A stretch of DNA of 64,000 nt from an uncultured Verrucomicrobiae bacterium (GTDB lineage Bacteria > Verrucomicrobiota > Verrucomicrobiia > Limisphaerales > UBA11358): positions 295,921-359,920 of the forward strand of contig CAVTWB010000012.1 in NCBI GenBank assembly GCA_963738245.1. The letters are read 5' to 3'. Position numbers and translations under genes: made by a program. Below, piece after piece: positions 5,185-29,953 of this stretch. Below the pieces are notes generated by a model that ran no database searches, was not told the origin of the DNA, and saw only the letters and a program-made list of their open reading frames with translations. How positions within the stretch are numbered: the first letter of the stretch is position 1; each line of letters begins with the position of its first letter.

Positions 5185-5269
5185 GCGCGCGTGGTGGAAT
5201 TGGCAGACACGCCAGACTTAGGATCTGGTTCCGCAAGGATTGGAGGTTCAAGTCCTCTCGCGCGCACCA
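5185..5269 (+). tRNA. tRNA-Leu (anticodon UAG), CCA encoded
   Basis: Hand-folded. Acceptor GCGCGCG/CGCGCGC, U8, 3-bp D stem GTG/CAC. Anticodon arm CCAGA-CTTAGGA-TCTGG (anticodon TAG). Long variable arm. T arm GGAGG-TTCAAGT-CCTCT. Ends ACCA. Confidence 0.9.
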
Positions 5270-5502: not shown

Positions 5503-6930
5503 ATGAAAACCACAATCTCGTTGGGTTTATGCGCCGCTTTTGCCGCAGTCTTTATTACCGCCTGTGCCCACAACAAGCCGGCCAAGGCCGCCGCCGATGC
5601 TGCTTTTGAAAGGCAATTGAACGAGGCGTCCGGCACAAACTCCATAACTACGGAGACCCCGGAAGCGGAATCTGTCACAACAAATATTGTGGCCGCTCCA
5701 ATTGCCGAAGCTGCCACAAATGAGGTTCCGGCGGCTGCCGTTTCGACTGTCGAAACCGCGACCAATGAGATTCCGTCACCGGCTGTTCCAGTTGTCGAAG
5801 CGTCCACGAATGAAGCGCCGGCTACTGCCGCTGCCACTGCTGAAGCTGTGACAAATGAAACTTCCGTTGCGGCGGCTCCGGTTGCCGAAGCTGCCACGAA
5901 TGAAGCTCCGGTGGTCGCCGCTCCGACTGCCGAAACCGCGACCAATGAGACTCCGGCGCCGGCTGTTCCAGTTGTCGAAGCGTCCACGAATGAAGCGCCG
6001 GCTACTGCTGCTGCCACTGTAGAAGCTGTGACAAATGAAACTCCCGTTGCGGCGGCTCCGGTTGCCGAAGCTGCCACGAATGAAGCTCCGGTGGTCGCCG
6101 CTCCGACTGCCGAAACCGCGACCAATGAGATTCCGTCACCGGCTGTTCCAGTTGTCGAAGCGTCCACGAATGAAGCGCCGGCTACTGCCGCTGCCACTGT
6201 AGAAGCTGTGACAAATGAAACTCCCGTTGCGGCGGCTCCGGTTGCCGAAGCTGCCACAAATGAGGTTCCGGCGGCTGCCGTTTCGACTGTCGAAACCGCG
6301 ACCAATGAGATTCCGTCACCGGCTGTTCCAGTTGTCGAAGCGTCCACGAATGAAGCGCCGGCTACTGCCGCTGCCACTGTAGAAGCTGTGACAAATGAAA
6401 CTTCCGTTGCGGCTGCCCCAGTTGCTGAAACTTCCTCGAATGAAATTCCGGCGGCGGCGGCTCCGACTGCTGAAACAACGACAAATGAAACTCCGGCTGG
6501 GGTTGCTCCGGTTGCCGAAGCTCCGACGAACGCAACTCCGGCGGTAGTTGCGGCGGTTGTTGAAGCCGCCACCAACAATGAAACTCCGGTTGCGGCGGCT
6601 CCGGTTGCCGAAGCACCCACCAATGAAGTGCCTGCGGTTGTGGTTCCTGCCACCAAGACGCCAACGGTTGCCACAGCAACACCCAGGCCAGCCCAGGCAC
6701 CCGCCGTGAATAAACCGGCCAGTCCACCGGCGACAGTGAAGCCGGCCAATCAGCTTGTGACCGTCAGTGGCGAAATCTTTAACAATCCATACGTCGAAAA
6801 AGTTGATCCGGACGGAATCATTGTCAGCTATACGCCGGCCCAAGGCGGGATGGCGATCACCAAGGTTTATTTCTACGAACTTTCCGACGCCATGCGGAAG
6901 CGATACGCACCCGATCCGGCGAACCAATAG
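5503..6930 (+). CDS. repetitive Ala/Thr/Pro/Glu-rich lipoprotein
   Basis: Start trimmed to MKTTISLGLCAAFAAVFITAC (lipobox). About 25 copies of a 15-aa motif (..AAPVAEAATNEAP..). Non-repetitive C-terminal domain QLVTVSGEIFNNPYVEKVDPDGIIVSYTPAQGGMAITKVYFYEL. Confidence 0.7.
   Translation: MKTTISLGLCAAFAAVFITACAHNKPAKAAADAAFERQLNEASGTNSITTETPEAESVTTNIVAAPIAEAATNEVPAAAVSTVETATNEIPSPAVPVVEASTNEAPATAAATAEAVTNETSVAAAPVAEAATNEAPVVAAPTAETATNETPAPAVPVVEASTNEAPATAAATVEAVTNETPVAAAPVAEAATNEAPVVAAPTAETATNEIPSPAVPVVEASTNEAPATAAATVEAVTNETPVAAAPVAEAATNEVPAAAVSTVETATNEIPSPAVPVVEASTNEAPATAAATVEAVTNETSVAAAPVAETSSNEIPAAAAPTAETTTNETPAGVAPVAEAPTNATPAVVAAVVEAATNNETPVAAAPVAEAPTNEVPAVVVPATKTPTVATATPRPAQAPAVNKPASPPATVKPANQLVTVSGEIFNNPYVEKVDPDGIIVSYTPAQGGMAITKVYFYELSDAMRKRYAPDPANQ
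5701..6420 (+). repeat. four near-identical 180-bp tandem units (built from 45-bp subunits) inside the lipoprotein gene
   Basis: 5761-5820, 5941-6000, 6121-6180 and 6301-6360 are near-identical. 5701-5760 matches 6241-6300, and 5881-5940 matches 6061-6120. Confidence 0.9.
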
Positions 6931-7725: not shown

Positions 7726-9549
7726 ATGAGTGATACAATCGAACAGGCGTTGTCGTCGAACGGCGCGCAGAAAGTGGCGCGGATCAGCGAAGTGGTGATC
7801 CGCATCGCCGGCAATTCGCAGGACGGCATCCAGGCCATCGGCGGTTTTCTCGCGCGGCTCGCCGGCCGCAGCGAACAGGAAGTCATGACGTTCATGACCA
7901 TTCCCGCCACGATTTCCGGCGGCGCCTCCATCTTCCAGGTCCGCATGGGCAGCGGCGAGGTTTTGAGCGCCGGCGACGAAGCGGATGTGCTGCTCGCGTT
8001 TTACCAGCACAGCTACGAGGCCCATATTGGCGGTCTCAAAAAAGGCGGCATCGTGCTTTACGATTCCGACCACGTCGTGCCGAACGAAGAGTGGAAGAAA
8101 AATTATCACCACCTCGGCATTCCGATTTCCGGCCTGACGGTCGAGGCCATCGGCGGCACGGCCAAGGACAAGGGGAAAAATATTTTCGCCCTCGGCCTCA
8201 TCGCCAAGATGTTCGACCTGAACCTGCCGAAACTTGAACAGCTCATCGCCGAACGGTTCACCGGCAAGGATCCGAGCATTTTGAACAACGCGCTCGCCGC
8301 GTTTCATGCCGGCCACGCCAACCCGCTCGGCAACGTGCTGGAAACTTTCAAGTTCGTGGACAGCCAGAAAAAGGACGGCCATCAGGTCGTGATGAACGGC
8401 AACGAGGCGCTCGGCTACGGCCTCATCGCCGCCGGCGTGCGTTTCGGCGCGGGCTATCCCATCACGCCGTGGTCGGACATCATGGAACTGCTCCGCCGCG
8501 AACTGCCGAAATACGGCGGCTGCTTCATCCAGACCGAGGACGAAATCGCCGCCATCTCGATGGCCATCGGCGGCAGCTACGCCGGGCGCGTCGCGGTGAC
8601 CGGTTCGAGCGGGCCGGGCATTTCGCTCAAGACCGAGGCGCTCGGCTGGGCCATCATGGCGGAAATGCCGCTCGTCGTCATTGACGTCCAGCGCGGCGGG
8701 CCTTCGACCGGAATGCCGACGAACATCGAGCAGTCCGATTTGAACATCGCCGTCAACGGCGGCCACGGCGACGCGCCGCGCGTCGTCATCGCGCCGGCAA
8801 ACGTCGAAGATTGTTTTTACATGGCGATTGAAGCCGTCAACATCGCCCGCAACTATTCCGTGCCGGTGGTTTTGCTGACCGACCAGGGCATCGCCACGCG
8901 CATCGAGGCGTTTGTGGAGCCGAACCTCGAAAAAGTTTGCCAGGACATTACGCCGGATTTCGCGCCGGTGGCCGACCACAAGCCTTACGATTTGTCGGCG
9001 CCCAACGGCATTTCGCATCACGTCCCGCCGGGCACCAAAATTGACAGCGGAAAGTATCCCATCGTCACCGGCCTCGAACACGACGAACTCGGCCATCCGA
9101 CCGGCTCGCCGAAACTGCACATGCAGATGACCGCCAAACGCCGCAGGAAATTGCAGGCGCTCGGCGCGACGCTGCCGGTGCCGAAAATCTACGGCCCGTC
9201 CGAAGGAAATGTTTTGCTCGTCGGCTGGGGTTCGACCGAAGGCCCGATCAAGGAGGCCGTGGACCGCGCCCGCGCCGGCGGCGACAGCGTTTCCTCAATT
9301 CATTTGCGCCACATCAATCCGCTGCCGGACGGGCTGGAAAATATTTTCTCCGGCTTCAATCATGTGCTCGTCGTCGAGATGAACGACGAGGGGCTTTACG
9401 GCTTCGGCCAGCTCGGCGCGATTCTGCGCGCCCGCTATTGCGATCCGAAAATCCAGGGCATCAACAAGACCGACGGCCTGACCTGGAAGGTGAAGGAAAT
9501 CCTTGAACGCACCAAAACCAACCTGTCCGCCGGTTTGAGCAAAATTTGA
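7726..9549 (+). CDS. korA: 2-oxoacid:ferredoxin oxidoreductase, fused gamma/alpha subunit
   Basis: 607 aa. N-terminal gamma-like domain, then GNEALGYGLIAAGVRFGAGYPITP and GSSGPGISLKTEALG. Paired with a TPP-binding beta subunit. Confidence 0.9.
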   Translation: MSDTIEQALSSNGAQKVARISEVVIRIAGNSQDGIQAIGGFLARLAGRSEQEVMTFMTIPATISGGASIFQVRMGSGEVLSAGDEADVLLAFYQHSYEAHIGGLKKGGIVLYDSDHVVPNEEWKKNYHHLGIPISGLTVEAIGGTAKDKGKNIFALGLIAKMFDLNLPKLEQLIAERFTGKDPSILNNALAAFHAGHANPLGNVLETFKFVDSQKKDGHQVVMNGNEALGYGLIAAGVRFGAGYPITPWSDIMELLRRELPKYGGCFIQTEDEIAAISMAIGGSYAGRVAVTGSSGPGISLKTEALGWAIMAEMPLVVIDVQRGGPSTGMPTNIEQSDLNIAVNGGHGDAPRVVIAPANVEDCFYMAIEAVNIARNYSVPVVLLTDQGIATRIEAFVEPNLEKVCQDITPDFAPVADHKPYDLSAPNGISHHVPPGTKIDSGKYPIVTGLEHDELGHPTGSPKLHMQMTAKRRRKLQALGATLPVPKIYGPSEGNVLLVGWGSTEGPIKEAVDRARAGGDSVSSIHLRHINPLPDGLENIFSGFNHVLVVEMNDEGLYGFGQLGAILRARYCDPKIQGINKTDGLTWKVKEILERTKTNLSAGLSKI

Positions 9550-22908: not shown

Positions 22909-23531
22909 ATGAATGTGAAACCTGCCATCGGATGGCTTAATACCGACAGCGACGAACTGCTGATCAATGATGTCAGCGTGGTCTTGAAGGCCCTGGCCGA
23001 CAACGTCGCCATCTACAAACTGCCCGACCCGCCATTGGCGGACGTCCAGCTCGCGCTGGACAATTCTCCACGGTGGTTCACATGGTGGGCCGCAGCCCGG
23101 CGGACAACATCAACAAAGACAACCTGCGCCTGGTGCTCACCAAGCTCGTGCGCTCGCTTTCGTATTATGTGGCCAAGGCGTGCAACGGCAGCATGGCGAA
23201 CCTGATTTTGAGCGGGTTTCCGCCCCAAAAGAGGCAAGGGCCAGCCCGTTGGCATACCGGCCCAGCCGCAAGGCCTCGTGGTCAAGCATGGCGACCCATC
23301 TCGGCGAGCTGGCGGCCAGGGTCAACCCGGTCTTTGGCGCGGTCCATCTACAACTACCGCCTGACGGCGAACACGCCCGGGGCGGTGCCGGTGATCGTGC
23401 AGGACACGGCGTCCATCCACACGTTTGAGGGCCTGATTTCCGGCGTGAAATACACCATTGATGTCAGTGCGTCGGGCACGGGCGGCACCATGAGCGACTG
23501 GAGCGGTGCGATCAGCCTGACCGCCGATTAA
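22909..23531 (+). pseudogene. decayed gene for a protein with a C-terminal fibronectin-type-III-like domain (about 4 frame changes)
   Basis: MNVKPAIGWLNTDSDELL..LALDN, then (about 23064) FSTVVHMVGRSPADNINKDNLRLVL..SGF, then KGQPVGIPAQPQGLVVKHGDP, then GELAARVNPVFGA, then IYNYRLTANTPG..GVKYTIDVSASGTGG..SDWSGAISLTAD-stop, using all three frames. Confidence 0.55.
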
Positions 23532-23576
23532 ACATTCTGTCTCCCATGCGCGCGCCGGATCAGTTCCGGCGCGTTT

Positions 23577-26500
23577 TTATTCACCATCATTGTTGCCGCC
23601 GTTTTTCTTTTCCCAACTGCGCCGCGCCTTTTCCGGCAGGCTGGTGTCCACTTTCGCGTAGTAAGTCTCCTCGCCGAACAGCTTGTTGGCGGCGTGCTCC
23701 AGTTCCAGCGACGGCGCGACGCTGAACCGCTCGTTCGTGTCCATGAAAACCGTTCCGCCGCCCGGTCGCATGAAGCACAACAGCAACGGGCATTTGCCGG
23801 GATGCGCGGCGACGAGTTCCTGAATCTTGATCATGTCGTCCGGCTGCAGATGCGCCGAGTGCAGGCGCAGATGAACCTGCTTGGTGTATTTTTTCGGCGC
23901 GTCGGTGAGCGGCAGGATTTCCTGCGGGAAAATCTTCGGCTTGTCCTCGCCGGTGCTGACTTCGCCGATGACGAGAATCGCCTTGTTCGCTTCGAGCAGC
24001 GGACGGAACTTGTCGTAGTCGTTCATCACGAGCAGTTGCACCGAGCCTTCCAAATCCTCCAGCGTCACCATCGAATACGGCTTGCCGGATTTTTTGGAGA
24101 AGCCGTGCGTGACCGCCGCGATCATGCCGCCGATGCGCGTCAAACTGCGGTTCGGCAGCTCGGCGAGCTTCGCGGTGTTCGTGAGCGAATATTTTTCCAG
24201 CAGCGGCACCAGCGGCGTCAGCGGATGGCCGGTGACGTAAAATCCGAGCAGCTCTTTTTCGTGCGCGAGCAGTTCGTGCTGCGGCCATTCCGGCAGATTG
24301 GAAATCGCCTCCGGCATCGGCGGCGCTTTTTCTTCCAGCGCGCCGAAGAGCGAGCTTTGCCCTTTTTGCTTGTCGGACAAAATGCTCGCCGCGCGCGCCA
24401 TCGTGCGCTCGATTTGTGCGAACAGCGTCGCCCGCGACTGGCCGAAACAATCGCACGCGCCGGTTTTGATCAATGCTTCCAACGGTTTTCGCGTGAGCGT
24501 GCGCCCGTCCACACGCTCGCACAAGTTCGGAAAGCGTCTTGAATTTTCCGCCTTCGTTGCGCGCCTTCAAGATGGTTTCAACGGCGGCCTCGCCCACGCC
24601 CTTGATGGCCGCGATGCCGAAACGGATGCGCTGTTGTGATAGTGGGACAGGCGTCCCGCCTGTCGTGTTGCCTTGGTATTTATCTTTGGAACTGGACAGG
24701 CGGGACGCCTGTCCCACTATGGCTGCGGGCAGGCTCGCAGTCATTCCTGCTCCGAGTCGGAAATTTTTTCCAGACAAACCGGCCTTGCTTGGATTTTCCT
24801 GAATATAGTGTCCGAATTTTTCCAGGCTGGCCTCATCGCGGACAATGTGATCGAAAGATTCGTCCTGCCAGAATTCGCCTTCGCGCCCCAGAAACTTGTT
24901 GGCCTCGTGGGCCGTAAATGATTTCCAAGCGTGCAAAATATCGGAGAGCTTGTGTTCCATCAGCGGCCGGACGATGAGGTGGACATGGTTTGGCATGATG
25001 ACGTAGCTGCCCAAAACATAGCGCTCGCCATCGAAATGGCGCAAGGCATTCTCGACCATGTCAGCCACATCGGGATTTTTCAGCCAGCACGCACCGTGAG
25101 CGTCATCCAACTGCGACTCCATCTGTTCGCGGAATTCTTCCATGACGGGTTCGGAGGCTGCACCGGCGGTGCGCACCGCCGCTTCGCGTTCCTGCTTCCA
25201 TCGGATGTAAACTTCGTTCGGCAGCGAATCAGCCAGCCGGAATGTTACGAAATAGGTTGCCCCGTCCTGCCGCCAATGCGGCAGGTGCCGGCTTTCAATG
25301 CTCGCAGGACGGGATTTGTCGAAGGGCGTGAACGGCAGTGGGACGGGCTGTAGTGGGACAGGCGTCCCGCCTGTCGAGTTCGTGTTTTGGAGTTTTCCTT
25401 TTTCAAAATCTTCTTTGGAACTGGACAGGCGGGACGCCTGTCCCACTACCGATGCGGGCGCAAAAAACACGCCGCTCTCGTTCACGTCCGGGCCGAGCAC
25501 CTCGATGTCGAACTCGCGCGCCTCGGCGATGTATTCGGCGAGCTTGTCCGTGTTCGCCATGTCGTTCGTCATCATGGCGCAGAAAAATTCCACCGGATAA
25601 TTCGCCTTCAGATACGCGGTCTGATACGCGACGATGGCATACGCGGCGGCGTGCGATTTGTTGAAACCGTAGCCGGCGAATTTTTCCAGCAAGTCGAAAA
25701 TTTGGTTTGCCTTCGTCTTCGGAATATTGTTTTTCTCGTGGCAGCCCTTGACGAAATCCTCGCGCTGCTTGGCCATTTCCTCGACCTTTTTCTTGCCCAT
25801 CGCGCGCCGCAGCAAATCCGCCTTGCCGAGCGAGTAGCCGGCGAGCAACTGCGTCGCCTGCATCACCTGCTCCTGATAAATCAGGATGCCGTAGGTCTCC
25901 TTGGAAATGGATTCGAGCAGCGGATGCTCGTATTTGATCTCGATCTCGCCGTGGCGGCGCTTGATGAAATCAGGAATCAGATCCATCGGGCCGGGCCGAT
26001 ACAGCGCGACGAGCGCCGTGATGTGCTCGACGGAACTGATCTGGAATTTTTTGCACAGGTCGCGCATCCCGCCGGATTCCAACTGGAACACGCCGAGCGT
26101 TTCCGCGCGGTTCAGCAGGTCGTAGGTTTTTTTGTCGTCGAGCGGCAACTGGTCAATGTTGATCTGCACGCCGTGCGTTTGCTTGACCATCTCGCAGGTG
26201 TTGCGGATGACGGTCAACGTTTTCAGCCCGAGAAAATCCATCTTCAGCAGGCCGAGGTCGCCGACGGGATTCATCGCGTATTGCGTGACGATGCCGCCAT
26301 GTTCGTCCAGCTTGAGCGGCAGCAAATTCACCAGCGGCTGGTCGCCGATGACCACGCCGGCCGCATGAACACTGGCATTGCGCGTGAGGTCTTCGAGGAT
26401 GAGCGCGGTGTCAATCAGCTCGCGCGTGACTTCTTCGGTCTCGTAAGCCTCCTTGAATTCCGGCGACTGCTTGAGCGCCTTCGTCAAATCCATTTTCAGA

Positions 26501-28759
26501 TCGAACGGAATCATTTTCGCCAGCCGGTCGCAGTCGCCATACGGCAAACCCATCACGCGGCCGACATCGCGCACGACGGATTTTCGCGCCCATCGTGCCG
26601 AACGTGATGATCTGCGCGACAGAATCATTGCCATATTTTTTGCGGACATATTCGATGACGTCAGCGCGGCGGTCGTCGGCGAAATCAATATCAATATCGG
26701 GCGGATTAACGCGCTCGGGATTGAGAAATCGCTCGAACAGCAGGCCGTAGCGGATCGGATCCACGTTCGCGATTTCGAGCAGGTAGGTGACAATCGAACC
26801 GGCGGCGCTGCCGCGCGCCACGCAGGCAATGCCCTGGCTGCGGCCATAGCGGATGAAATCGCCGACGATGAGAAAGTAGGAAATGAAACCCGTCTTCTCG
26901 ATGACCGTGAGTTCGAGCTGCAAGCGGTCAATGACCGTTTTGACGGCAGCGGCAACGGCGGGATCGTTGGTTAGTGGCACAGGCGTCTCGCCTGTGTGTT
27001 TCTGTTTTTCATCGCACAGGCAGGACGTCTGTGCCACTAAACCGCCGCCGACACGGTATGCCCCTTCGCCCAAACTTGCTTTCTTGGGATTATCTTGAAT
27101 ATACCGGCCAAACTTTTCCAACTGTTGCTCGTTTCTGACGATGTGGTCGAAGGATTCCGGCTGCCAAAATTCTCCCTCACGATTCAGCAGCTTGTTGGCT
27201 TCTTTCGCAGTGAACGATTTCCACGACTGGAGAATGTCAGATAATGTGTGTCCCATCGCTGGCCGCACCAAAACATGGACGTGATTGGGCATGATGACGT
27301 AGCTGCCCAACAAATAGCGTTCACCATCAAAGTGACGCAGCGCAGCCTCCACCATTTTGGAGACGCCAGAATCGCGCAGCCAGCACTCGCCGATGCCTTG
27401 ATCCAAGTGTCGTTCCAACTTTTTCTCGCATTCTTCGGCAATTTTCCCGGCCAGCTCCTGTTTCTCCGCGTCGGAAAGGTTGGCGGCCTGCTTCGCTTCG
27501 CGCAAAGCGGCGTCACGTTCATCACGCCATTGTTTGAAGACTTCCTGCGGCAGTGAATCATCCAGACGGAACGTTACAAAATATGTTGCGCCTTCCTGCT
27601 GCCAATGTGGCAGGGAACGTGAATGAATGCTTGCCGGACGGGTTTGGTCAAACGCGGTGAACGGCATTAGTGGCACAGGCGTCTCGCCCGTGTGTTTCTG
27701 TTTTTCGTCACACAGGCGGGACGCCTGTGCCACTACATTATACGTCGGCAGCCGCTTCGGATCATCAATGCCCGTGACGACAAATTCTTTTCCTTCCGCC
27801 TTCGCGTGAATCGTGTAGCGCGTGAACAGTCCTTCCGCCAGCCATTGCCGCAAAAAACCTTCGCGCGTGAAATGTTCCGGCGGATGAAACACCGGATAAT
27901 GCAGCTGGCCGAACTTGATTTCCAAATTGCATTTCTCGGCAACCTCCATCGTGTTCTTCACCGCCTCCGGCACCTCGGCGAAACGCGCCTTCATTTCGTC
28001 TGCGCTGCGCAGATAAAACTGTTCCGGCACATAGCCCGCGCTCATGCGCTTGGGGTCGCTCAACAGGGATTGCGTGCCGATGCAGACGAGACAATCGTGC
28101 GCGTGCGAATGGCTTTTCTCGATGTAATGGACGTCATTCGTCGCGACGAGCTTCAGGCCGAATTCCTTTGGCCAATTTGAATCAACTGCTTGATTGACCT
28201 TGGCCTGTTCGGGAATGCCGTGGTTTTGGAGTTCGAGGAAAAAATTTTCCGCGCCGAGCGTCTGCTTGAAGAAATCCACCGCATCGCGCGCCTTGTCAAT
28301 TTGATCCTTCATGATCAAATCGGGAATCTCGCTGGCGAGACAACCGGACATCGCGATCAGACCTTCGCTGTGCTGCGCCAAAATTTCCTTGTCAATGCGC
28401 GGCTTGTAATAATAGCCCTCCAGGTGCGCGGCGGTCGTGAGCTTGATGAGATTTTTGTAGCCGGTCTCGTCCTTCACCAGCAGGCCGAGATGATGATACT
28501 TGTCGCCCTCGACTTTTTTGCGTTCCAGCCGCGAGCCGGGCGCGACATAAACCTCGCAGCCGATGATGGGCTTGATGCCTTTCGCGCGCGCGGCCTGATA
28601 AAACTCGATCACGCCGTGCATCGCGCCGTGGTCGGTGATGGCGAGCGCGGGAAATTTCAGCTCATGCGCCCGCTCCATCAATCTGTCCAAACGGCACGCG
28701 CCATCGAGCAACGAATACTCGGTGTGCAAATGAAGATGGACAAAGTCAGCGTGCGACAT
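23577..28759 (-). CDS. dnaE: DNA polymerase III alpha subunit, interrupted by two in-frame HUH-transposase cassettes and two 1-nt frame breaks
   Basis: PHP domain HLHLHTEYSLLDG. GFISYFLIVGDFI, ARGSAAGS, FLNPERVNPPDIDIDF, ITFGTMGAK|SVVRDVGRVMGLPYG, FNKSHAAAYA, IAAIKGVGEAAVETIL, and OB/C-terminal region. Assembled from track ORFs 26411..28759, 23587..26955 and 23577..24524. Confidence 0.9.
24642..24717. repeat. REPIN-like nested palindrome, type A (cassette 2, DnaE-distal side)
   Basis: Perfect 23-nt arms GTGGGACAGGCGTCCCGCCTGTC / GACAGGCGGGACGCCTGTCCCAC with a 30-nt loop. Each arm is itself a hairpin GACAGGCG-nnn-CGCCTGTC. Confidence 0.9.
25353..25446. repeat. REPIN-like nested palindrome, type A (cassette 2, DnaE-proximal side)
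   Basis: Same perfect 23-nt arms with a 48-nt loop. A partial extra copy AGTGGGACGGGCTG lies at 25338-25351. Confidence 0.9.
26974..27037. repeat. REPIN-like nested palindrome, type B (cassette 1, distal side)
   Basis: GTGGCACAGGCGTCTCGCCTGTG .. CACAGGCAGGACGTCTGTGCCAC. 23-bp stem with 1 mismatch and 2 G-T pairs. Loop of about 18 nt. Confidence 0.85.
27670..27733. repeat. REPIN-like nested palindrome, type B (cassette 1, proximal side)
   Basis: GTGGCACAGGCGTCTCGCCCGTGTG .. CACACAGGCGGGACGCCTGTGCCAC. Differs from the 26974 copy at 5 of 64 positions. Confidence 0.85.
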
Positions 28760-28843
28760 GAAACCAGTTTAACTTCCAACCGCCGAGACACCAAGACGCA
28801 AAGTTTCGCCACAAAGAGTTTTCCACTGTGTCCTGGCGGTGAA

Positions 28844-29953
28844 TTAGTTCTTGAAGAAATCCTCGATGACTTCCGCCACGCGCTGGATTTGCGCGTCGGT
28901 CAGTTCGGGATAAATCGGCAGGCTCAAGCATTCGCGCGCGGCCTTTTCCGCCACCGGAAAATCGCCGGGCTTGTGGCCGAGGCTGGCGTAACATTTTTGC
29001 AGATGCAGCGGCAGCGGATAATGCAGCGCGCAGCCCACGCCGTTGGCGTCGAGATGTTCCTTCAATTTGTCGCGCTGCGGGTGGCGCACGACGTAAAGAT
29101 GGTAGGCGCTTTCGGCATAGGCGGCCTCGCGCGGCAATTGCAGCGGCGTGTCCTTCAACAGTTCGTGATAGCGATGCGCCACGCGGCGGCGTTCATCCGT
29201 CCATTTTTGCAGATGCGGCAGCTTCACGCCGAGCACCGCGCCCTGGATGCCTTCCATGCGGTAATTGAACCCGACTTCGTCGTGATAATAACGCACATTG
29301 GAGCCATGTTCGCGCAAGGACCGGGCGCGCTTGGCGAACTCCGCGTTGTTCGTGACGAGCGCGCCGCCTTCGCCGCACGCGCCGAGATTTTTGCCGGGAT
29401 AAAAACTGAAGCAGGAAATGTCGCCGAACGTGCCGACGATTTTGCCTTTGTATTTCGCGGCGTGCGCCTGCGCGGTGTCCTCGACGAGCGGCAGCTTGTG
29501 CTTTTTGCAAATTGCCAGAACCGGTTCAAGGTCGAACGGATGTCCGTAAAGATGCACCGGCATGACGGCCTTGGTTTTTGAAGTGATGGCGCGTTCGAGC
29601 AATTTAGGATCGAGATTCATCGTGGCGTCGTCCACGTCCACATAAACCGGTTTCGCGCCGACGTAGGAAATCGCCCAGCTCGTCGCGACGAACGTGAACG
29701 GCGTGGTGACGACTTCATCGCCCGGCCCGACGTTGAGCAGCATCAGCGCGACGTGCAGCGCGGAAGTGCCGCTGTTGAATCCGACGCAGTGTTCCGCGCC
29801 GATGAATTTGGCAAAGTCTTTTTCAAACTGGACAACGTCCGGCCCGAGGCAGAACGAGCAGTGGTCGAGCGTGCGCGCGATAGCGGCGTCCAGTTCCTTG
29901 CGGACGCCGCGGATTTGCGCCGGCAAATCGAGATATGGAATTTTGTCAGCCAT
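28844..29953 (-). CDS. DegT/DnrJ/EryC1/StrS-family PLP-dependent sugar aminotransferase
   Basis: 369 aa. Family-typical IPYLDLPAQ.., FEKDFAKFIGAEHCVGFNSGTSALH, and FSFYPGKNLGACGEGGALVTN (PLP-lysine region). Confidence 0.85.
   Translation of the reverse strand: MADKIPYLDLPAQIRGVRKELDAAIARTLDHCSFCLGPDVVQFEKDFAKFIGAEHCVGFNSGTSALHVALMLLNVGPGDEVVTTPFTFVATSWAISYVGAKPVYVDVDDATMNLDPKLLERAITSKTKAVMPVHLYGHPFDLEPVLAICKKHKLPLVEDTAQAHAAKYKGKIVGTFGDISCFSFYPGKNLGACGEGGALVTNNAEFAKRARSLREHGSNVRYYHDEVGFNYRMEGIQGAVLGVKLPHLQKWTDERRRVAHRYHELLKDTPLQLPREAAYAESAYHLYVVRHPQRDKLKEHLDANGVGCALHYPLPLHLQKCYASLGHKPGDFPVAEKAARECLSLPIYPELTDAQIQRVAEVIEDFFKN

Follow-up and report, generated by a model that had tools for sequence, protein, structure and literature searches.

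Two REPtrons that probably live in frame within the dnaE gene of an uncultured Limisphaerales bacterium

REPtrons, or RAYT-REPIN systems, combine a gene for a REP-associated tyrosine transposase (RAYT) with repetitive extragenic palindromic sequences (REPs) and are known from TnpAREP of Escherichia coli (4ER8) and the RAYTs of Pseudomonas and Stenotrophomonas (PMC3333891, PMC3116915, PMC8266576, PMC6006769). In these systems, an HUH/Y1 transposase is flanked by REPs, each with a foot (GTAG or GTGG) next to a GC-rich hairpin; two REPs in inverted orientation form a doublet (REPIN), and each RAYT lineage has its own REP type. Known REPtrons are extragenic, usually present in a single copy and viewed as immobile, while serving large dispersed REP populations. 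Indeed, the RAYT literature stresses that these genes are single-copy, extragenic and non-mobile (PMC5581495). The locus described here is the dnaE gene, coding for DNA polymerase III alpha, in a 64,000 nt stretch of DNA (the window) of an uncultured soil bacterium of the Verrucomicrobiae, order Limisphaerales (GCA_963738245.1, contig CAVTWB010000012.1, positions 295,921 to 359,920). It shares the above architecture with known REPtrons. Unlike them, it comprises two diverged REPtrons in one essential reading frame, which are probably translated in frame and belong to a group that has moved between two sites.

Solo REPs within reading frames are already described biology, which a sequence-only reading of this stretch had missed. 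Di Nocera et al. (2013, PMC3733652) found intragenic GTAG/GTGG REP dimers of 20-30 codons in frame in proteins, with the largest numbers in the verrucomicrobium Opitutus terrae and with many copies in replication and repair genes. Quentin et al. (2018, PMC6006769) also identified REP insertions that preserve the frame of subclass-2.4 tnpAREP genes. In contrast to the present locus, both reports concern solo REPs, and the transposase gene itself is not reported in host frames; the 2018 survey dropped TnpAY1 proteins that were longer than expected, regarding them as “gene fusions or annotation errors” (PMC6006769). Rickettsia palindromic elements (RPEs), with which the cassette ends had been compared, are apt as an analogy, as these palindromic repeats are likewise inserted in frame in functional protein genes, including dnaE of Rickettsia conorii (as cited in PMC3733652). 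RPEs are found only in Rickettsia and probably represent other sequence families, and PMC3733652 reports no transposase with them, whereas here the autonomous partner is also in frame. No description of RAYTs inside genes, of RAYT-Dtd fusions or of a RAYT in dnaE was found in the searchable literature, and an in-frame REPtron, transposase included, within an essential or other host gene appears to be undescribed.

Cassette 1 (Table 1) has the same orientation as dnaE and is in frame with it: a 22-codon REPIN is followed by a 210-codon protein starting with MPFTAFDQ and a second 22-codon REPIN, after which DnaE resumes with TNDPAVAAAVK. For the two flanking elements that had been recognized from the sequence (26974-27037 and 27670-27733), recomputation confirmed 5 differences in 64 positions and a distance of 696 nt (232 codons); with their TA feet included, they extend to 26972-27039 and 27668-27735. 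Their translations in the DnaE frame (VAQASRLCDEKQKHTGETPVPL and VAQTSCLCDEKQKHTGETPVPL) were likewise read correctly, as was the RAYT ATG (MPFTAFDQ) directly after the upstream element, at 27667. A single 23-nt arm consists of a GTGG foot and an 8-bp stem (CACAGGCG/CGCCTGTG) closed by a 3-nt loop, and each doublet contains two such arms in inverted orientation. The self-folding noted for the left arm is found in each arm, and the pairing described between the quoted arms, with one mismatch and two G-T pairs, is true of the first element (3 differences between the left arm and the reverse complement of the right, namely 2 G-T pairs and 1 C-A mismatch); the second element shows 2 differences. 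A 23-nt REP with a perfect 8-bp stem and a 3-nt loop has the geometry of the group-3 REP of Stenotrophomonas maltophilia, and both the GTGG variant of the foot and this stem-loop are described for known REP families (PMC3733652, PMC6006769, PMC8266576). Folding of the palindromes as single-stranded DNA and as RNA, as proposed earlier, yielded long hairpins in both cases with z about -8 to -10: the doublets of cassette 1 reach -24 to -31 kcal/mol as DNA (z -7.7 to -10) and -44 to -52 kcal/mol as RNA (z -9 to -10.6), with -31.3 kcal/mol (DNA) and -52.3 kcal/mol (RNA) for the upstream REPIN alone.

The earlier reading of the insert as a transposase was borne out, and the protein is a Y1/HUH transposase, namely a RAYT, whose REP doublets are read through in the dnaE frame. 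Y1_Tnp is the sole Pfam domain of the insert, and the best NCBIfam family is the REP-associated tyrosine transposase NF047646, with 72.5 bits for RAYT 1 and 72.7 bits for the other copy. E. coli TnpAREP (4ER8) is the sole PDB sequence match of RAYT 1 and also the top Foldseek PDB match (E 1.8e-6) of an AlphaFold2 model of the 254-residue cassette, which has a mean predicted local distance difference test score (pLDDT) of 87; ISDra2 and IS608 TnpA (IS200/IS605) follow. RAYT 1 exhibits the HUH motif NHVHVLV and the catalytic tyrosine of RYIQDNP and keeps every invariant residue of the family, with H151, H153, Y211 and W190-Q191 at invariant or near-invariant columns of a 56-sequence alignment. 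TnpAREP enzymes cleave and transfer single-stranded REP DNA at a CT or CA beside the hairpin, and a candidate CT dinucleotide is present in the CCACTA foot. Since the insert is a RAYT and its flanks show REP anatomy in a REPIN arrangement, the segment is a REPtron, i.e., a RAYT gene between directly repeated REPINs. An IS200/IS605 insertion sequence, which would code for a TnpA of about 150 residues, have unlike subterminal hairpins at its left and right ends and occur in several near-identical copies, was considered and rejected: the IS200 model NF033573 scores 19.6 bits, far below its cut-off of 55, both ends carry the same REPIN, and RAYT 2 is only 61% identical to RAYT 1. In the structural model, the RAYT is predicted to be an autonomous HUH domain (pLDDT 85-98), while the REPIN-encoded residues (25-67) are predicted to be disordered and would serve as linkers. 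A model of a mini-chimera of finger, RAYT and helix-hairpin-helix (HhH) parts again predicted a confident RAYT between disordered linkers; the host hairpin was too poorly modeled to show strand pairing.

The surrounding gene exhibits the Pfam domains PHP, DNA_pol3_alpha (palm), DNA_pol3_finger, HHH_6 and an OB fold, and its product is, by segment, 86-96% identical to an intact DnaE of 1250 residues (P0006). A variable linker joins the PHP domain to the palm, and cassette 1 is inserted there, between residues 323 and 381 of Taq alpha. Cassette 2 interrupts the loop matching residues 821-830 of E. coli alpha, directly before the HhH motif. Both insertion points are loops of varying length among relatives. 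The split-intein site of cyanobacterial DnaE lies before CFNKSH, and the insertion sites found here differ from it. The REPIN arms of cassette 2 are GTGGGACAGGCGTCCCGCCTGTC, and its arm-to-arm periods of 711 and 729 nt are each a multiple of 3. Both cassettes are co-oriented with dnaE, free of stop codons and a multiple of 3 in length, and all four doublets are built as TAGTGG, 8-bp stem and 3-nt loop. The corresponding half-site pattern occurs eight times in the window, where shuffled sequences led to an expectation of 0, and every one of them borders one of the two dnaE cassettes. Related loci totaling 1.8 Mb contain 72 half-sites, of which only about 15 are located outside long open frames; this sample is biased, as the loci were selected for the presence of dnaE and RAYT genes. 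The “extragenic, single-copy” habit of RAYTs is not followed, as two copies reside inside one reading frame.

Table 1. Positions of dnaE, its two cassettes and its two frameshifts, counted from the first nucleotide of the window.
Feature	Position	Strand	Description
dnaE (DNA polymerase III alpha)	23577..28759	minus	three frames as assembled: 28759-26411, 26955-23587, 24524-23577
Cassette 1, whole REPtron	26972-27735	minus	RAYT gene enclosed by two 68-nt REPINs in direct repeat
Upstream REPIN of cassette 1	27668..27735	minus	two inverted REPs; read as VAQASRLCDEKQKHTGETPVPL (codons 27733..27668)
RAYT 1	27038..27667	minus	210 codons; REP-associated tyrosine (HUH/Y1) transposase domain, in the dnaE frame
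Downstream REPIN of cassette 1	26972..27039	minus	direct repeat of the upstream REPIN; read as VAQTSCLCDEKQKHTGETPVPL
Cassette 2	24640-25448	minus	same plan as cassette 1, in frame, in the finger-domain hairpin loop of DnaE
Upstream REPIN of cassette 2	25351..25448	minus	arms TAGTGGGACAGGCGTCCCGCCTGT; 32 codons, VGQASRLSSSKEDFEKGKLQNTNSTGGTPVPL
RAYT 2	24718..25350	minus	211 codons, sharing the frame of the finger and HhH part of dnaE
Downstream REPIN of cassette 2	24640..24719	minus	26 codons, VGQASRLSSSKDKYQGNTTGGTPVPL
Frameshift 1 (+1)	26581..26584	minus	GCGAAA[A]TCC, with one A that four relatives lack
Frameshift 2 (+1)	24522..24525	minus	GAACT[T]GTGC, one base more than in four relatives

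Taken together, it is probable that the REPtron lives inside the dnaE frame as an in-frame, stop-free module. A ribosome on dnaE would pass through the first REPIN (22 codons), the RAYT of 210 residues and the second REPIN (22 codons) and return into DnaE. The RAYT would be expressed via the transcription and translation of its host gene, and the DnaE-RAYT chimera would still be a working polymerase. Alternatively, the RAYT might be translated separately from the ATG at 27667, which would render the dnaE frame irrelevant to its expression. The sequence-only reading had regarded such internal initiation as conceivable; the ATG is located directly after the REPIN, and free-standing homologs begin at the equivalent position (P0125, MPVLPFRAFD; P0137, MWTLPFQAFD). 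However, this scenario is unlikely and not a general one, as the methionine is unique to the window copy and replaced by L, T or P in every other dnaE cassette examined. No Shine-Dalgarno-like sequence is apparent by eye before the ATG, and a hairpin of -52 kcal/mol has its foot at this codon; in a search for an internal promoter, promoter-like sites were found at chance level, and no terminator-like site was found on the sense strand. In addition, the downstream part of DnaE would still need translation, and most embedded cassettes keep the frame on both sides.

Several observations weigh against a translated, in-frame module. The NF047646 scores of both RAYTs remain below the curated (equivalog) cut-off of 80 bits. 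No further REPINs of either cassette type were found in the window, and a dispersed REPIN population is thus not seen. The cassette-type hairpins are perfect over 26-30 bp and reach -44 to -68 kcal/mol as RNA, and perfect hairpins within a reading frame could hinder translation or attract RNases; read-through and expression of the chimera are predicted here from the sequence. Furthermore, dnaE as assembled contains two +1 frameshifts, which had been missed earlier. Both are located downstream of cassette 1, the second also downstream of cassette 2, so that, as assembled, only cassette 1 shares the frame of the dnaE start, and this frame stops 57 codons past the first shift. Damage is also present in other cassette-bearing dnaE genes, as an in-frame TAG in L003 and as frameshifts in L004, P0121 and P0255.

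These lesions could indicate that the dnaE gene of the window is a decaying pseudogene that tolerates insertions, with a second, intact dnaE elsewhere in the genome. In line with this, no other frameshifted gene was detected among the few suspect pairs of open reading frames (ORFs) checked in the window, all of which look like separate genes. Several findings nevertheless render this explanation improbable. Apart from the two shifts, no stop codons or other lesions are present across roughly 1700 codons, and comparison with L004 and L005 yielded a ratio of non-synonymous to synonymous substitution rates (dN/dS) of 0.025. Both shifts are found at positions of alternative synonymous codons in close relatives (TCC or AGC; CTG or CTT), which suggests mixed-strain consensus errors. 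Due to these positions, the low dN/dS and the lack of other lesions, consensus errors appear more likely than gene decay. The damaged copies L004 and P0255 contain many indels, as is typical of noisy assemblies, and cassette-bearing dnaE frames are intact in L085, L086, L087 and P0243. To survey relatives, species-representative genomes were scanned with the intact DnaE P0006, and the 80 best loci of the Limisphaerales (Verrucomicrobia subdivision 3), 79 of them distinct, were analyzed. No GTDB representative occurs twice among these 80 loci, with one exception: L042 and L043 (JBAPQW010000022.1) are one dnaE locus found twice at mirror-image coordinates of a contig that probably represents a palindromic assembly artefact.

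Programmed +1 frameshifting at AAA-A and CUU-G was also considered and rejected, as the sites are not conserved, P0255 shows a deletion at the second site, and relatives read straight through. The TAG of L003 (GCA_036490295.1, DASXED010000103.1, ~9490-9495; EAI*KARKENGKF), which stems from a short-read assembly, is located 15 codons upstream of the position of the window's second shift, and the deletion of P0255 affects the same codons as that shift. The second shift of the window and these lesions of L003 and P0255 cluster downstream of site 2, the insertion point of cassette 2.

Further dnaE genes with a RAYT were identified in other assemblies, namely P0002, P0003 (locus L003), P0004, L004, P0121, L085, L086 and L087 as well as P0241, P0243, P0244, P0245 (at site 1, the insertion point of cassette 1), P0246, P0250, P0255 and P0260. 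Unbroken frames that lead from DnaE through the cassette into a normal C-terminus are present in L085 (1510 codons), L086 (1498 codons), L087 and P0243, and in-frame DnaE-RAYT fragments in P0002, P0003, P0004, P0241, P0244, P0245, P0246, P0250 and P0260. The 696-nt period of cassette 1 recurs in L085, the closest cassette from another assembly. It is conceivable that repeats joined a RAYT locus into dnaE during assembly: REP repeats are known to break assemblies, and the downstream REPIN is where the contigs of P0002 and P0004 break off. This is hardly credible, however, since the same exact in-frame junctions are found in more than ten independent assemblies from different pipelines, with the architecture shared by the window, L003, L004, L085, L086, L087, P0002, P0004, P0243 and P0245.

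Individual copies show peculiarities of their own. In the intact DnaE-RAYT chimera of L086 (~6000-6760), the inner REP arm of each flanking REPIN is decayed and the outer arms are left; the cassette may therefore be immobilized. The RAYTs of P0003 (L003 ~8900-8970), P0243 and P0245 themselves contain a nested in-frame solo REPIN, e.g., LVGQASSLPEAVKEKAGWKPAPL, in the helical region ahead of the HUH motif. Such a nested, frame-keeping REPIN is a feature of tnpAREP subclass 2.4.

None of the 80 species-representative loci contains a RAYT in dnaE. Site 1 is minimal (9-12 nt) in 18 of the 79 distinct loci and carries a longer insert of up to 192 nt in 61; site 2 is minimal (18-24 nt) in 48 and carries a longer insert of up to 132 nt in 31. 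All lengths, minimal ones included, are multiples of 3, and none of the inserts contains a stop codon; among inserts of at least 45 nt, an inverted repeat is still visible in roughly half at site 1 and in three quarters at site 2. A 22-codon in-frame scar at the site of cassette 1 had been predicted from recombination between the direct copies, and such solo REPINs of the cassette-1 family were found at the same codon in L004 (VARASRPCVENQELTGGTPVPL) and L014 (VAQASRLCDTNQKHTGETPVPL). The closest intact relative carries solo REPINs at both sites. The state of site 1 differs between the window (filled) and L004 (solo) over a dS of 0.17 for dnaE. Across species of the Limisphaerales (L005-L084), these two DnaE loops hold palindrome-derived peptides of at least ten unrelated families, all with lengths in multiples of 3, for example LTPALSPGERE...LSPLPGGEGQGEG, VGDDVRSL...EPPHVGSY and RGTGFQPV...TGQRPVPQ. 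L017, L027 and L051 were considered as cassette carriers due to their long dnaE matches and contain no RAYT; L027 and L051 instead show a small insertion at the 5' end of dnaE. In these two loci (L027 6001-6724, L051 6001-6664), the first 33 dnaE codons are duplicated ~660-720 nt upstream of the true start, and the interval of L027 contains two small overlapping ORFs of 74 and 100 amino acids that resemble, by eye, an antitoxin and a RelE/ParE-type toxin.

These alternative states suggest how the element might come and go. A RAYT together with one REPIN would be gained or lost by in-register recombination between REPINs, and both the filled and the solo state would leave dnaE in frame. Such an exchange could take place by homologous recombination, by gene conversion or by a RAYT-catalyzed strand exchange at the CT within the CCACTA foot, because a solo REPIN is homologous to both cassette ends. 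Analyses of substitution rates yielded a dN of 0.021, a dS of 0.32 and a dN/dS of 0.064 for RAYT 2 and its L004 ortholog and a dN/dS of ~0.05, at saturated dS, for RAYT 1 and the L085 copy; as judged from these ratios, the embedded RAYTs are under purifying selection. In a neighbor-joining tree of 245 RAYT domains, 14 dnaE-resident copies are found in one clade of 15 leaves. A site-1 copy is present in each of its two subclades, and the site-1 copy P0245 groups with site-2 copies. The site-1 RAYT of the window is 82% identical to the site-2 RAYT of P0002 and 72% identical to that of P0004, compared to 65% for the window's own site-2 RAYT. There is, consequently, a dnaE-specific RAYT clade in which the site does not follow the lineage and the elements switch between two sites.

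A selfish element that persists in an essential gene without disrupting it is also represented by the inteins of DnaE and by IStrons, which combine an IS605-family element with a group I intron. Inteins and IStrons neutralize themselves by protein or RNA splicing, whereas no Hint domain and no ribozyme is present here, and neutrality appears to be achieved via in-frame domain insertion in a permissive loop. An intein was rejected, as Pfam finds only Y1_Tnp in the inserts and the junctions are REPIN-encoded peptides, and so was an intron or ribozyme, as an Rfam E-value search of positions 23000-29500 returned only sub-threshold, miRNA-like hairpin matches on the REPINs. The same results bear on the broader proposal that DnaE never carries the insert, because the cassette would be lost beforehand through RNA processing or splicing, through protein splicing or, in most cells, through excision of the DNA by the RAYT. 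Excision or cleavage by RNases would fit the direct repeats at the flanks and the strong hairpins, and IS200/IS605-type enzymes excise precisely from single strands (PMC8266576). Nevertheless, we give such removal little credence, since it would, in addition, leave the multiple-of-3 length, the lack of stops and the co-orientation across many lineages and hosts unexplained. Translation of the REPtron as part of DnaE remains the preferred interpretation.

The dnaE case is not a one-off; its clade of host-gene-resident RAYTs is one member of a broader, apparently unrecognized pattern. Among the 120 closest database homologs of cassette 1, 59 are located in frames with more than 60 extra host residues, and about 22 of the 40 closest RAYTs in metagenome loci have in-frame host sequence on both sides. 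In ~15 of 18 embedded cassettes, the direct repeats at the two ends are spaced by a multiple of 3; the same is true of about one third of free-standing ones, whose spacings are spread evenly over the three residue classes. Host proteins, identified with Pfam, include the nucleic acid enzymes DnaE, DinG-like helicases, PriA, type I restriction R subunits (HsdR), Eco57I/MmeI-like enzymes, an SNF2-PLD protein, DUF1156, XseA, a RecF/SMC-like protein, the CCA-adding enzyme, Sua5 and Dtd. CarB, a UDPGP-like protein, a SerA-like dehydrogenase, pterin-binding proteins, adenosine deaminase and peptidase M3 represent metabolic hosts. The latter weaken the idea of an exclusive preference for DNA enzymes; nucleic acid enzymes are prominent among the hosts, not exclusive. 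In the tree described above, RAYTs associated with Dtd, DinG, PriA, HsdR, PGDH and the CCA enzyme largely cluster by host. The Dtd fusions, of which there are dozens, are C-terminal read-throughs: dtd, coding for D-Tyr-tRNA deacylase, runs without a stop through a REPIN into the RAYT to yield 350-420 amino acids (P0131, P0138, P0234, L095 and ~45 more), and the Dtd-associated RAYTs form their own clade.

HUH nucleases and DNA-tracking enzymes are combined in one polypeptide in HUH-helicase fusions as well, such as RepHel of Helitrons, conjugative relaxases and viral Rep, to which RAYTs inside DnaE, PriA, DinG-like helicases and HsdR are a counterpart. In contrast to these fixed architectures with demonstrated joint function, the present fusions result from mobile-cassette insertion, and their joint function is conjecture. 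IS200/IS605-type enzymes act on single strands exposed at forks (PMC6006769, PMC8266576), and it might be speculated that residence in DnaE, PriA or a helicase places a single-strand transposase at its replication-fork substrate. As a tentative and rather doubtful extension, in-frame REPtrons may represent a distinct, long-lived lifestyle of HUH transposases, in which a frame-neutral mobile protein domain resides in host frames, is expressed only within the host protein and, in DnaE, PriA and helicases, gains access to the single-stranded DNA of the fork.

Apart from dnaE, two tRNA calls were obtained for the window. The tRNA-Leu at 5185-5269 is the sole tRNA backed by both ARAGORN and Rfam; a tRNA-Arg(tcg) of 94 nt called by ARAGORN at 2359-2452 has no Rfam match at the gathering score and is probably a false positive.

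RAYTs have been viewed as “domesticated” and immobile. In contrast to this view, a whole clade resides in an essential replicase gene, is under purifying selection and has moved between two loops, with sister clades in other host proteins. In-frame REPtrons would account for “fusion” proteins in metagenome assemblies of Verrucomicrobiota and Planctomycetota that surveys have thrown out as annotation errors, and also for the recurrence of low-complexity peptides such as VGQASRLS...TGGTPVPL. Should the chimeric proteins indeed be produced, they would represent a third harmless way into an essential gene, beside splicing at the RNA level and at the protein level. If this reading is true, it would also provide a natural route to HUH-polymerase and HUH-helicase fusion proteins and a testable link between single-strand transposition and the replisome.

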